64,000 nucleotides of DNA from a virus (lineage: Duplodnaviria; Caudoviricetes), in the IMG/VR virus record IMGVR_UViG_3300034157_000065, positions 96,001 through 160,000 of that record, one strand, 5' to 3'. This document shows positions 30,850 through 34,309 of this stretch, piece by piece. The notes under the pieces are model-generated. The model was not told the origin of the DNA. It saw only the letters and a program-made list of their open reading frames with translations, and ran no database searches. Both the position numbers and the translations under genes were made by a program. Positions within the stretch are counted from its first letter, which is position 1, and every line of letters begins with the position of its first letter.

Positions 30850-31788
30850 TTGATGAAAGAAGCCTATTTCGAACAATTTGGTAAAATATTCTGTGATGAT
30901 CATGAAAATTTTATTCAACATTTAAAAGATACAAAATTTTATAAAGAAATTAAAAGCAAGAAATACAATAATAAGGATTTGAAATCTTATATTTCTAATA
31001 AAGAATATAATGGTGTCTCCTATATTATTCAATTGAGAAATACACCGTTCTCCAGTCCATTGACTATTTATTCAGGTAAATCTGATTATTTTACGTCTAA
31101 AAGTGAAGGTGGATCTACTCTTAGTCGATTGTTTTCTATTGATATGCGAGTTATTGATATTTCCAAAAATTTTGGGGTTATAGATGCGTTTAAAAAATTA
31201 GGGATTGAAGAATCACATGAAGTCCCCAATGTGCTTTCAGTCAGTGATATGGATGGCATGAAACAATTTTTTATTGATGCTAACTATGAGTTAGGTGTCA
31301 ATAATTTCGATAAACTCATTGAAGATTACAGTGAATATGATGACGAATTTCTGAGTAAGCTCAGTTTCATTTGTGATATGTATAGCCATAAAAAGTTTAG
31401 TAAAAAAATGATGTTAAATGACAGCTATCATTATATCAAATGTGATGTTGCAGATAAGGAAGTGTTTTCTTATTCCAATGATGCTTCGGATGACTACTTC
31501 TTTATTTTTGAACGAGACATCAATACAAAAAATATTCGTGTCTTCTTTGATTTCATGAGTAATGTTGATAAAGCAAAATTTAAGTTTTCAACCTGTGTGG
31601 TAGGCAATCATCCAAAAATTGTTCATGATTATTTGGAAAATAAAACACCTTGCTTTATTTCCACAGATGGCAATACAAAAGTTATTAAAAACACTCAAAC
31701 TTACCTGCTTGATGATATGGAATACATTGCTGCTAACTTAGCTGAACGCTTAAAAGTGAAATTACCATCTGAGTTCTCTATTTTTTGA
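30850..31788 (+). CDS. Hypothetical protein
   Basis: 312 aa ORF; GAGG RBS. Confidence 0.75.
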   Translation: MMKEAYFEQFGKIFCDDHENFIQHLKDTKFYKEIKSKKYNNKDLKSYISNKEYNGVSYIIQLRNTPFSSPLTIYSGKSDYFTSKSEGGSTLSRLFSIDMRVIDISKNFGVIDAFKKLGIEESHEVPNVLSVSDMDGMKQFFIDANYELGVNNFDKLIEDYSEYDDEFLSKLSFICDMYSHKKFSKKMMLNDSYHYIKCDVADKEVFSYSNDASDDYFFIFERDINTKNIRVFFDFMSNVDKAKFKFSTCVVGNHPKIVHDYLENKTPCFISTDGNTKVIKNTQTYLLDDMEYIAANLAERLKVKLPSEFSIF

Positions 31789-31819
31789 TGTCTACTTGAA
31801 AAAAAGATTAAAAAAGGTC

Positions 31820-31848
31820 TTGAATAAGGCTGAAAGGTTTGCTAGAAT
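31820..31848 (+). promoter_or_regulatory. Sigma70-like promoter of the RNA island
   Basis: TTGAAT-17-TAGAAT with TG extension; promoter-leader resembles that of tRNA-Cys. Confidence 0.7.
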
Positions 31849-31896
31849 GGCTACATTGAATGAGACGACAGCTTCAAAGTCACTCAGGATTGTAAC

Positions 31897-32021
31897 GCGG
31901 GTGTGTGAGTATAATAGGAGAGTTGGCCTTCCGTCCTTTGAAATATAAGGTTGCTCTACCGTTAAGGCGTGAGTGCCTTGCTACATCGGTAACGTAGGTT
32001 CAAGTCCTACCATCTGCACCA
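31897..32021 (+). ncRNA. Enlarged (125 nt) tRNA-like RNA ending in ACCA
   Basis: GCGGGTG/CATCTGC acceptor, T-arm GTAGG-TTCAAGT-CCTAC, ACCA; interior has two non-canonical stems instead of D and anticodon arms. Confidence 0.7.
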
Positions 32022-32159
32022 AATTGTTCTTGTTTTTAAAATGTTTTTATGCTACAATGATGTTGTTGTAAAGTTGAGAATTAATCGAAATGCTGGATCA
32101 TTTCCGTTAAAAGTAGGTGATTCAGGTAGACCTAGCTTATTCTCTTACTCTGAACCAAT

Positions 32160-32233
32160 CGGTGAAACGCTCAAATGGTGAGCAAATGGTGTTGTAACCA
32201 TACTCGTGGGTTCAAGTCCTACTTCACCGGCCA
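32160..32233 (+). tRNA. Atypical or pseudo-tRNA, anticodon undetermined (Asn-like G73)
   Basis: CGGTGAA/TTCACCG, D-arm GCTC/GAGC, T-arm GTGGG-TTCAAGT-CCTAC, GCCA; anticodon loop is 6 or 8 nt, never 7. Confidence 0.7.
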
Positions 32234-32286
32234 AATTGCTTGATTGTTGTGATGACTTGTGGTATAATCATCCCATCAAATGAATT

Positions 32287-32517
32287 CGGAGCCTTCGCCA
32301 TAGAGGGTTGGATAGCAGCGGTGTCGCGGGCAAGCTATCACGAAAGGTGAGAATCAACTCCCTTTCATAGTAATGAAGTGCATCAGAGCTGAGTTTTGCT
32401 CTTGATTAAAACGCTTGGGTGAAGCGGCCTTTATTACGAACTTGATTGTCAATTAGCGAAGGAATTATAGTCCTAGTGGCTATGATTAAAACGGTTAGGT
32501 GGACTGGCCTTCGTTAA
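32287..32517 (+). ncRNA. Unassigned structured RNA, copy 1 (two tandem three-way-junction modules)
   Basis: Homologous to 32582-32735 with compensatory changes; upstream TGGTATAAT. Confidence 0.75.
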
Positions 32518-32581
32518 GACCAAATTAAAAGATTGTTATTTACAGGTGGTTGATGTATAATAGCGGTCAGTTAAACGAATA

Positions 32582-32735
32582 CGGAGCAGCAGTTAAATGT
32601 TGCTGAATGGTAGCGGTGGTCGGGCGAGCCATTGTAAGAAGGAGAGGTGATTTCTTAGTCCCTCTCTTAGCAATAAGAGCATTGAGGGTGCTGTTTTCCT
32701 CGATTAAAACGGTTGGGCGAACCGGCTCTTGTTGC
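32582..32735 (+). ncRNA. Unassigned structured RNA, copy 2
   Basis: Same conserved loops (CGGAGC, AGCGGTG..CGGGCRA, GATTAAAACG, GGGYG) with covarying stems; upstream TATAAT. Confidence 0.75.
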
Positions 32736-32798
32736 AAACCCTATTCCAAAGAGTTGTCGATGACAGCTTTTTTCTTTTTAACAGTGATGGAGAGTGTC

Positions 32799-33011
32799 AT
32801 GATTGAGAATAACGAATTTGCAACTGAGTATGCTGGTCAGCTTGTTTTTTATATGACTGCTGAACAACGCCAAGCTGTCTTTGCTCATATTGAAACGTTG
32901 TTTGATAAAGACGCCATTGCTTGTATGAAGGCTGATGCTCAGCAGATTGTTGAAATGCGTGCAGATATGGATCGTCGTCTTGCGGAAATGGACGCAAAAA
33001 CCGCAGTATAA
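32799..33011 (+). CDS. Hypothetical protein (70 aa)
   Basis: GGAG RBS before ATG 32799; the longer upstream start overlaps the ncRNA. Confidence 0.65.
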   Translation: MIENNEFATEYAGQLVFYMTAEQRQAVFAHIETLFDKDAIACMKADAQQIVEMRADMDRRLAEMDAKTAV

Positions 33012-33026
33012 GCTACACCTTTTTAT

Positions 33027-33100
33027 TGCCGAATAATCTAGATGAATCAGGTAACTGTGTAATCTATGATGTCGTAGGCTAGATCCTACTTCGGCGGCCA
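33027..33100 (+). ncRNA. Degenerate tRNA-like element (74 nt, GCCA end)
   Basis: TGCCGAA/TTCGGCG acceptor, D-stem ATCT/AGGT, GTAGG/CCTAC T-stem with abnormal loop CTAGAT; no proper anticodon stem. Confidence 0.55.
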
Positions 33101-33103
33101 GAT

Positions 33104-33216
33104 TTGCTGTAGGCTCTTGTAGCCTGTCCGACCGGGTTGTGACCGGGCAGAACCAGACGGTTCCCGCTTTCGGGTGGAGTCGATAAGGCATAGGTAATCG
33201 GTTCCTATTGCAGCAA
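33104..33216 (+). ncRNA. Multibranch structured RNA of unknown family
   Basis: Closing stem TTGCTGTA/TGCAGCAA; inner CGAC/GTCG enclosing three hairpins, one with UUCG loop; ATAGG/CCTAT hairpin. Confidence 0.6.
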
Positions 33217-33308
33217 TGAAATTATTAACATTATTGAGAGAATATTATGCCTACATACGAGAGAATCTGGACACGATTATAAAATGTTAGCCCTAGGAGG
33301 GTCAAGTT

Positions 33309-33479
33309 ATGTCCAGAAGTGTAAAAGGTAGTAAAGGTGGTGGTTATGAATATTGGTCTAAAAGACCTATGTGCTATTCTTCTCCCGGTCGTTGGGCCAA
33401 ACAGAAGTGCCATCGCATTGAAAGACAGCAAGACAAAGATTTGATTAGATCTGAACTTAAAGATTGTCACGATCTTTAA
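33309..33479 (+). CDS. Small basic protein (56 aa), not in ORF track
   Basis: AGGAGG RBS; MSRSVKGSKGGGYEYWSKRPMCYSSPGRWAKQKCHRIERQQDKDLIRSELKDCHDL. Confidence 0.7.
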   Translation: MSRSVKGSKGGGYEYWSKRPMCYSSPGRWAKQKCHRIERQQDKDLIRSELKDCHDL

Positions 33480-33494
33480 TCGTTCAAACAGAGC

Positions 33495-33633
33495 AAGACC
33501 TGCATTAAGCGAAGACTGGCAGCTTGATACGGGAATTATACCGGCCCAGCGGTTTAGCAGAGCGATAGGAGTAATCCTTGACCGTAGAAGCAGTGATAAT
33601 CGGTGACTTGGTGGTGGAAATAGATTAACCACT
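33495..33633 (+). ncRNA. Putative structured RNA with possible pseudoknot
   Basis: CTGC/GCAG enclosing ATTAAGC/GCTTGAT, GGG/CCC and GCGGT/ACCGT with AGGA-GTAA-TCCT; loop TACCGG complementary to downstream TCGGTG. Confidence 0.5.
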
Positions 33634-33640
33634 TTAGTAT

Positions 33641-33670
33641 AAAAAAAAGACTTCTTCGGAAGTCTTTTTT
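33641..33670. terminator. Bidirectional intrinsic terminator (cUUCGg)
   Basis: A-run, gacttc-ttcg-gaagtc, T-run between convergent units. Confidence 0.85.
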
Positions 33671-33676
33671 GTTTCT

Positions 33677-34309
33677 TTACATTTTAAATTTTCTCTTGTT
33701 TTCACTTTTTGGCTTTGGTGTCTCTCTGTTGGCTAACAGGTTAATCCACTGAGTGTCTTCCCGGCCTTGTTTATCAGCCCCATGATACAATTTCACGTCA
33801 CCAAACAATTTCGAATCTTCAAGTATTTTTGATAATTCTGGTATGGTGTAGTAGCTGAAAAATCTTCCTTTTGGATCACTTGATTCACCTTCACCACTTT
33901 TGAAGCTGGCATAAATCTTTCCACCTTCCTTCATACTGTCAGCAATTTTCAATAATGTAGTTTTTAATTCTTCTTTGTTCAAATGAAGTAACGAAGCCAT
34001 ACACCACACACCATCAAATTCACCCTTCCAGTTTATTTCTGAGAAGTCTTTGTGTTCAACCTTTACACCAGAATTGCTTTTTGCTATTTCAACTAGTTCT
34101 TTGGAAGCATCCATGCCTTGCACATTGAAGCCAAGATTTTTGAAAGCAATTAAATCACGTCCTGAACCGCAACCCGCATCTAAGATCTTTGCATCAGCAG
34201 GCATATTCTTGGTAAATTCCTTGTGCAGATCGGATATGTCCAAGTTGATAGTGCTTTGAGCATACTCATCAGCATTCTTATTGTAGTAATCTATTGTCTC
34301 TTTATTCAT
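33677..34309 (-). CDS. Class I SAM-dependent methyltransferase
   Basis: ILDAGCGSGRD, GMDAS, FDGVWCMASLLHL. Confidence 0.9.
   Translation of the reverse strand: MNKETIDYYNKNADEYAQSTINLDISDLHKEFTKNMPADAKILDAGCGSGRDLIAFKNLGFNVQGMDASKELVEIAKSNSGVKVEHKDFSEINWKGEFDGVWCMASLLHLNKEELKTTLLKIADSMKEGGKIYASFKSGEGESSDPKGRFFSYYTIPELSKILEDSKLFGDVKLYHGADKQGREDTQWINLLANRETPKPKSENKRKFKM

Follow-up and report, generated by a model that had tools for sequence, protein, structure and literature searches.

We analysed a window of 64,000 nucleotides (nt), corresponding to bases 96001-160000 of the 192,830-bp IMG/VR record IMGVR_UViG_3300034157_000065, for the stretch at 31790-33670, which an earlier reading of the sequence (the original prediction) had described as an island of individually promoted non-coding RNAs in otherwise gene-dense DNA. 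The source record is estimated to be 59% complete, is classed as 'provirus', has a GC content of about 35% and encodes mainly small open reading frames (ORFs) without known domains. Within the island GC content was 0.41 compared with about 0.35 elsewhere, and only two ORFs were real, ORF70 (70 amino acids) and ORF56 (56 amino acids). Since only these two behave as genes, coding density drops to about 20%; they alone stayed open, with third-position bias, in four relatives, which bore out the predicted coding collapse. Nine structured elements (at least eight had been proposed) were found on the plus strand, in the order E1, the hairpin of E2, E3, RNA A, the free-standing module A', RNA B, E6, E7 and E8. 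The observation of a dedicated and conserved island of separately promoted non-coding RNA genes was confirmed, with stems compensated and promoters kept in relatives.

Four IMG/VR records (64-179 kb, 80-99% identity) and the 437-kb record G002, which is rated 98% complete, also carry the island, and additional members of the family formed by RNAs A and B were encoded on metagenome contigs of 1 kb, 112 kb, 678 kb and 1.86 Mb. Loci in these relatives and contigs are labelled L002, L003, L005, L006, L142, L162, L174, L175, L196 and L198, of which L003 and L142 are stretches of G002.

RNA A (32268..32447, plus strand) and RNA B (32563..32745, plus strand) had been taken for two copies of one unassigned RNA, and they are indeed paralogues with 78% column identity, like folds and compensatory changes between the copies at 13 of 41 pairs. 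A covariance model built from both recovered 17 members in 10 loci, with RNA lengths of 150-185 nt. Across these 17 members 97.6% of cells were paired and both-side changes occurred at 27 of the 41 pairs; none of 500 shuffles attained the pairing, the double-change counts or the covariation score of the alignment, and pairing in slid controls was 40-49%. The frequent G.U pairs indicated that the plus strand is the RNA strand of this family. When fold energy was compared with that of shuffled sequences, it was clearly better for RNA B (z-score, z, of -3.7) and borderline for RNA A (z -1.9).

The 5' part of these RNAs consists of the conserved single-stranded GAAUNNGGAG, hairpin P1 and a helix P2 that closes the invariant loop AGCGGUG, 2-3 nt, CGGGC; an optional helix P3 of this head is missing in two of the G002 copies. 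The body is a three-way junction with P4 (9-10 bp), P5 (7 bp), the linker UAAAAC and P6 (5 bp) with the loop GGGYG, and it is followed by a conserved 3' tail, AACYUNAUU. A helix joining the conserved 5' GAAUNNGG to the 3' tail as well as loop-loop pairing were sought by eye, and the positions were either invariant or inconsistent in register. The junction also occurs on its own as A' (32451..32519, plus strand), a free-standing copy followed by ACCAAAUU that scored 76 bits, folded with z -3.8 and was 96-100% conserved. When the module was aligned alone, 16 of its 22 pairs were compensated, and a module-only model found exactly three copies in each of the smaller records and four in G002. At about 408 kb of G002 (L142:1110-1620), a promoter-to-terminator unit of ~450 nt carries a solitary three-way-junction module at its 3' end; its 5' part is unlike the A/B head, so that the module may be joined to other RNAs.

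A covariance scan (cmscan) of 31500-34000 against Rfam at E<=10 returned only tRNA and transfer-messenger RNA (tmRNA) matches and noise. Among curated Rfam families (riboswitches, T-box, GOLLD, ROOL, manA, Y RNA and ribozymes) none matched this region, and the relatives gave tRNAs only. RNAs A and B form an RNA family of their own that is absent from Rfam. It was found in no cultured phage by blastn of the whole island, for which the sole match was the ORF56 region of Pseudomonas phage D6, and exact-motif matches in 185,579 species genomes included 0 true members. Combined-pattern matches yielded seven member loci among L143-L203 (metagenome contigs) and none among L122-L130 (viral contigs) or L204-L264 (GTDB genomes). 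The looser pattern AGCGGTG..CGGGCNAGC was rejected as a family search for being too unspecific. No member was found outside this huge phage-like lineage with these scans, which need exact motifs and miss diverged members. L175 and L198 lie on the same contig, Ga0308158_10000001 (1.86 Mb), and L174 on the 678-kb contig. Several IMG/VR records are 'provirus' cuts out of such very large contigs, which may be concatenated assemblies, giant elements or host chromosomes. Because members are spread over records and contigs of up to 1.86 Mb, 'huge phage-like element' is the safest label.

All A-type copies are followed at their 3' side by the free module A', and B-type copies as well as L196 by an intrinsic terminator. 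Two family copies of G002 sit directly upstream of tRNA-Cys, with tRNA-Cys 3 nt downstream of the family RNA and then a terminator like that at the end of the island, of which a 26-nt piece (window 33645-33670) reappears unchanged. In L198 (6400-6545, minus strand), and likewise in L174, the A/B-type RNA is directly followed by a tRNA-shaped gene with a D-loop insert of ~100 nt. To judge from these neighbours, the 3' end of every family RNA is closed by a stable structure, which in many cases is a tRNA or tRNA derivative. Around the G002 copies seven tRNA genes lie within 8 kb, and the same cluster (L003:7866-7941) encodes a tRNA called by ARAGORN with a four-base anticodon (agaa) in an 8-nt anticodon loop. 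The ORF upstream in L198 ends in ...WNKRP, presumably a Lar-like motif.

Three elements of the island have the shape of altered tRNAs. In the window E1, E3 and E6 each combine a 7-bp acceptor stem on a T arm with a 3' CCA; none was called as a canonical tRNA by ARAGORN and none has a 7-nt anticodon loop. Compensatory changes preserve the acceptor and T stems of all three, whose middle parts have been remodelled or lost. E1 (31897..32021, plus strand) is a 125-nt expanded look-alike of a class II (Leu-type) tRNA with comparative support. Its 7-bp acceptor stem bears G3.U70 and A73, it has a T arm, an encoded CCA (ACCA) and a long extra arm, and a 4-bp mini arm with a loop of 5-8 nt replaces the anticodon arm. 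In the diverged L162 the acceptor, mini arm and T arm of E1 are 100% paired, five pairs having double changes. By score the nearest relatives of the E1 model were class II tRNAs such as the tRNA-Leu(TAG) of the window, which shares the 5' end and the 3' end GCACCA; an orthologue was not found in G002, where the model matched ordinary tRNAs only.

E3 (32160..32233, plus strand; z -3.3) is an altered tRNA-Asn cloverleaf with an encoded CCA. It is orthologous to the tRNA-Asn(GTT) of G002, with two acceptor pairs changed on both sides, and its rebuilt anticodon arm can be drawn with a 5-bp stem and a 6-nt loop or with a 4-bp stem and an 8-nt loop. It is the sole one of the three to pass the Rfam tRNA cut-off (34.2 bits versus 29). 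E6 (33027..33101, plus strand; z -2.8), located between ORF70 and E7, is a tRNA-like minihelix with a 7-bp acceptor stem, a T-arm-like hairpin, GCCA and one irregular hairpin in its middle. L002 and L006 have lost 22 nt of this middle part, yet three acceptor pairs are compensated.

E2 (32064..32159, plus strand) is the 5' leader of E3. The 11-bp stem originally read as a hairpin RNA exists (32093-32103/32115-32125), but it had no energy (z -0.75) or covariation support and is the weakest of the elements. L002 and L006 lack this hairpin along with E3, no conservation of it was seen in G002, and as an independent conserved RNA it was rejected, having neither energy nor comparative support. The 3' half of E2 is conserved upstream of the tRNA-Asn of G002, where a different small hairpin covaries (UAGG/CCUA versus UGGG/CCCA). 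Cassettes were gained and lost at common T-arm/acceptor/CCAAAUUG repeats. At L006:12650-12830 an extra tRNA-shaped gene of ~180 nt, which is absent from the window, lies between the RNA B terminator and ORF70; besides an acceptor stem, D and T arms and CCA, it comprises a 6-nt 'anticodon' loop and ~95 nt of variable region.

E7 (33102..33225, plus strand), a multibranch RNA, starts directly after the CCA of E6. Identity was 92-94% in three more diverged relatives with the first 50 nt invariant; one hairpin pair was seen as A-U, C-G and U-A, and the closing helix was kept via G.U changes. One close relative carries a purine-rich insert of 110 nt (L005:3964-4073) between E7 and the conserved spacer behind it (= window 33223/33224). 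E8 (33480..33642, plus strand) is a structured RNA with the motifs CUUGACC, GAAGC and GGUGGUG, of which a homologue follows the third family copy in G002 and shows eight pairs with double changes, including a long-range helix. RNAs A, A', B, E7 and E8 were 86-99% identical to their counterparts in L002/L006, compared with 71-72% for ORF70. Fold energies clearly better than those of shuffles were obtained for B, A', E3 and E6 (z -2.8 to -3.8). As judged from sequence comparison, the folds are under purifying selection and the promoters are conserved. Given the compensated stems and the conservation, A, B, A', E7 and E8 cannot be products of random decay, and neither can the acceptor/T-arm cores of E1, E3 and E6.

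Of the four sigma70-type promoters that had been proposed, three were recovered by a consensus scan of the plus strand: promoter P1 (31820..31848, TTGAAT-17-TAGAAT with TG), promoter P3 upstream of RNA A (32240..32268, TTGATT-17-TATAAT with TG, 94-97% conserved) and promoter P4 upstream of RNA B (32533..32561, TTGTTA-17-TATAAT). Promoter P2 (32030..32058, plus strand, TTGTTT-17-TACAAT with the extended -10 TGcTACAAT) is present but weaker: it was read by eye below the scan threshold, its -35 TTGTTT matches at 3/6 positions, and it was seen in the closest relatives only, the cassette being absent from L002 and L006. Three promoters begin 7-12 nt after the preceding CCA, in agreement with the idea that some start just behind a CCA end. 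The sigma70-type consensus scan found 12 promoter-like sites in the region versus 9.9 expected, which is not above chance; what sequence support the promoters have comes from comparison of relatives and not from the raw site count. In L002 and L006 the hexamers of promoter P1 are unchanged with 10/17 spacer bases different, and TTGnnn-17-TAnAAT stands at the same distance upstream of 15 of the 16 full-length A/B members, in six diverged contexts and with differing spacers. The sole full-length member without an upstream promoter is the second copy of a tandem pair.

The cassette of promoter P1, GGTTTGMTAGAAT..CTACATTGAA, is common to E1 and to the tRNA-Cys unit at 28884. This tRNA-Cys(GCA) gene (28884-28957; unit 28810-28995) stands alone, with a separate promoter and terminator and a 45-nt leader, and the promoter with its initial transcribed cassette (TAGAAT..CTACATTGAA) is the same at tRNA-Cys, at E1 and at family copies in G002 and L198. 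Single-gene RNA transcription units are therefore a habit of the source genome. The four promoters of the island would give four predicted transcripts, the first consisting of E1, the second of the leader E2 with E3, and the third of RNA A followed by the free module A'; the fourth would be RNA B, to which terminator read-through would add ORF70, E6, E7, ORF56 and E8.

ORF70 (32799..33011, plus strand) was open in 4/4 relatives, with substitutions by codon position of 16/16/28 versus L002, and had neither a Pfam nor a PHROG match. ORF56 (33309..33479, plus strand), likewise open in 4/4 relatives and with a third-position bias versus L002 (6/0/16), encodes a small basic Cys/His protein of phrog_7399. 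Homologues occur in 40 cultured phage records, nearly all of them jumbo phages, including PhiPA3, PA1C, Psa21, phiRSL1 and D6; the G002 homologue adjoins tRNA-Asn, between tRNA genes without E7 or E8. ORF56 is probably a passenger in the island. Longer ORFs that run over the RNAs (137 and 133 amino acids on the minus strand, 134 amino acids on the plus strand) were rejected as genes because they contain frameshifts or 3-9 stops in three diverged relatives. A weak intrinsic terminator (32748..32782, plus strand) lies directly 3' of RNA B and is kept in relatives. The spacer at 33226-33308 is 91-94% conserved and overlaps the ribosome-binding site of ORF56. Inside it, on the minus strand, is the best promoter match of the region (TTGACC-18-TATAAT, 11/12; window 33276-33305), which would, if active, yield antisense RNA to E7, E6 and ORF70. 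The island closes, as had been predicted, with a bidirectional intrinsic terminator (33643..33670, both strands), in which an A-run and a T-run flank a 12-bp stem, so that it is able to work both ways; it is common to the island and the convergent methyltransferase gene (33677-34309, minus strand). The methyltransferase was considered as a protein partner of the RNAs and rejected, the gene being absent from G002.

Small stable RNAs in the tRNA region of a phage have a precedent in T4, where RNA C and RNA D (species 1 and 2) are of unknown role (PMC3014915). The T4 record places them behind tRNA-Arg, at the end of the tRNA cluster, with spacers of 1-6 nt. The comparison made in the original prediction was apt, since the A/B family is found among tRNA genes in G002 and T4 rnaC is itself tRNA-shaped: like the G002 family copies, RNA C and D are non-tRNA RNA genes within a few nt of a tRNA, stability being predicted in our case, and the fold of rnaC shares with E1 a canonical T arm and closing stem. 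The E1 model scored 21.1 bits on rnaC and 21.3 bits on the T4 tRNA-Leu, and as these scores are equal they point to generic tRNA likeness and not to homology. The best score of the A/B model in T4 69000-75000 was 5.7 bits, which is no match. The resemblance to RNA C/D is therefore one of kind and not of homology. The island differs from T4 in the separate promoter of each RNA and in the modular, duplicated nature of its cargo family.

The large RNAs GOLLD and ROOL have an elaborate structure and no known function, and they often occur beside tRNA genes and in prophages (PMC5737381). They share the phage and tRNA-adjacent context with the A/B family, but comprise ~580-800 nt with many junctions and pseudoknots, compared with 150-185 nt and no Rfam match for A/B. 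In plant mitochondria, tRNA-like structures termed t-elements define mRNA ends (PMC1920247). E6 resembles such tRNA punctuation as an acceptor/T-arm minihelix between two cistrons and directly before the structured RNA E7, and more generally tRNA or tRNA-like genes abut the cargo RNAs, which is known here from the layout and the conserved geometry; in contrast to the organelle, this is a bacterial virus-like element and cleavage is predicted. Bacterial Y RNAs (YrlA) and the tRNA-like domain of tmRNA are non-decoding and keep the acceptor/T-arm/D-arm module (PMC4201824). With G3.U70 and A73, E1 is similar to tmRNA and tRNA-Ala, but differs in that there was no Rfam Y RNA match in the region, the tmRNA model RF00023 reached 18.6 bits versus a cut-off of 47, ARAGORN called no tmRNA and no tag reading frame was found. 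The weak tmRNA match reflects the acceptor and T arm only, because only the two ends of the model align.

With somewhat better than even confidence we consider the island to be a conserved cluster of non-coding RNA genes producing stable, trans-acting RNAs, in which tRNA-shaped parts serve as processing and stabilising handles. Its best explanation is that it derives from, and stays linked to, the tRNA region of the element. The tRNA derivatives keep what RNase P and the 3' maturation enzymes recognise and have lost decoding, which would fit a role as handles. The original suggestion that tRNA-like units act as processing marks is consistent with the layout, in which cargo RNAs abut a tRNA or tRNA-like element. 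RNase P would cut the tRNA-shaped parts on the 5' side and RNase E together with exonucleases would trim them on the 3' side; these parts might also form nuclease-resistant ends, so that neighbouring RNAs would be released and stabilised. In E. coli-type processing, 3' ends of tRNAs with an encoded CCA are matured by RNase E and exonucleases; the encoded CCA here makes this route more likely than the RNase Z of the original prediction. Cleavage at E6 would split the mRNA between ORF70 and ORF56, as in organelle tRNA punctuation. RNAs A and B would be the cargo, acting in trans via their invariant single-stranded motifs (GAAUNNGGAG, the P2 loop, the UAAAAC linker and the GGGYG loop), and the partner of these motifs would most plausibly be a protein or a component of the tRNA/translation apparatus.

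Several findings weigh against this reading. E1, E2, E7 and E8 folded no better than shuffled sequence, and for E1, E6, E7 and E8 the support consists of 4-5 sequences, mostly from close relatives. The E1 of L162 has A3-U70 and ends with CCG instead of CCA. Because the T-like loop of E6 has 6 nt and lacks UUC, RNase P might not recognise this element. RNA B has a terminator of its own and so does not require a tRNA-like handle. Among the neighbouring protein genes, a check of the methyltransferase and ORF56 revealed no conserved partner of A/B, and in the cultured jumbo phages PhiPA3 and D6 ORF56 is not tRNA-adjacent.

The RNAs might instead be an anti-defence set that acts as decoys, sponges or substitutes against PrrC, RloC, PARIS, retron-type or type III toxin-antitoxin systems, together with an Rnl1 repair ligase. 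Phage tRNA regions are known players in conflicts over host defences that target tRNAs, the RNAs are separately promoted and conserved, and an Rnl1-type ligase is encoded in 5/5 records that carry them. This function nevertheless appears unlikely. E1, E3 and E6 lack the normal anticodon loop on which anticodon nucleases act, the island has no defence or toxin gene next to it, and the three module copies of the island are spaced 80 and 218 nt apart and do not form a tandem array as ToxI-type antitoxins do. A specific link to Rnl1, raised as a possibility in the original prediction, was not supported, as the ligase is ~24 kb away (range 18-28 kb) and its co-occurrence is only lineage-wide synteny; overall, the interpretation offered there was partly supported.

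It is improbable that RNA B and E7 are cis-acting leaders, that is riboswitch-like or attenuator elements for ORF70 and ORF56 with RNA A as a tandem copy. The order of promoter, RNA B, terminator and ORF70 does resemble a classical riboswitch, and E7 precedes ORF56. However, the 16 full-length members do not hold a constant position in a 5' untranslated region: only B-type copies precede ORF70, beyond the terminator, RNA A is followed by the next promoter, and behind the other members lies a tRNA, a tRNA-like gene, a further RNA or a terminator without an ORF. The riboswitch reading fails because members are not consistently in front of genes, and it is further disfavoured by the lack of an Rfam riboswitch match and by the ORF56 homologue of G002 doing without E7 and E8.

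We regard it as equally improbable that A/B RNAs multimerise or scaffold a particle, in RNA-only or RNA-protein assemblies for which the repeated three-way junction would be the assembly module. The modular architecture with a junction reused in several contexts, the invariant G-rich loops, which suit tertiary contacts, and the phage, tRNA-adjacent context as in GOLLD and ROOL (PMC5737381) speak for such assemblies. On the other hand, A/B RNAs are far smaller than GOLLD or ROOL and have no homology to any Rfam family, and inspection of variants revealed no loop-loop complementarity or inter-loop covariation. Finally, evolutionary debris, i.e. a former tRNA cluster decaying into pseudogenes and recombining repeats, is highly improbable: the ancestor of E3 was a tRNA-Asn and that of E1 a class II tRNA, only three canonical tRNAs are left in the 193-kb record, and cassettes come and go (E2-E3 missing in L002 and L006, the extra tRNA-like gene in L006, the 110-nt insert in L005), but stems are compensated, loops stay invariant despite differing stems, promoters are kept and most RNA parts, among them the non-tRNA ones, are better conserved than the adjacent protein gene ORF70, which already contradicts decay for A, B, A', E7 and E8.

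The reading as a cluster of stable RNAs with tRNA-shaped handles can be carried further, to a proposal that we put forward as a quite doubtful one: A/B might represent a novel type of phage effector RNA whose invariant G-rich loops would let it dock onto tRNA or the ribosome, the tRNA-shaped neighbours being natural 'tRNA scaffolds' that hijack host tRNA processing, and together they might form a transferable toolkit for reprogramming host translation or tRNA metabolism. Were this true, it would open a route to explaining RNAs of the T4 RNA C/D type. Knowledge of small stable RNAs from phage tRNA regions dates back to the T4 era, and none of them is known to have an assigned role. Such unexplained phage loci are known already as a kind; new here are the RNA family and the tRNA-derived variants. 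The island represents a compact and comparatively well-constrained example, with an Rfam-absent family that shows covariation and reusable modules, and with several tRNA derivatives reduced to what processing enzymes recognise. Pull-down and mutagenesis could be aimed at the invariant loops of A/B as concrete targets. Should the tRNA-shaped parts act as handles, the island would be a natural version of the engineered 'tRNA scaffold' and would explain why non-decoding tRNA look-alikes persist in phages.

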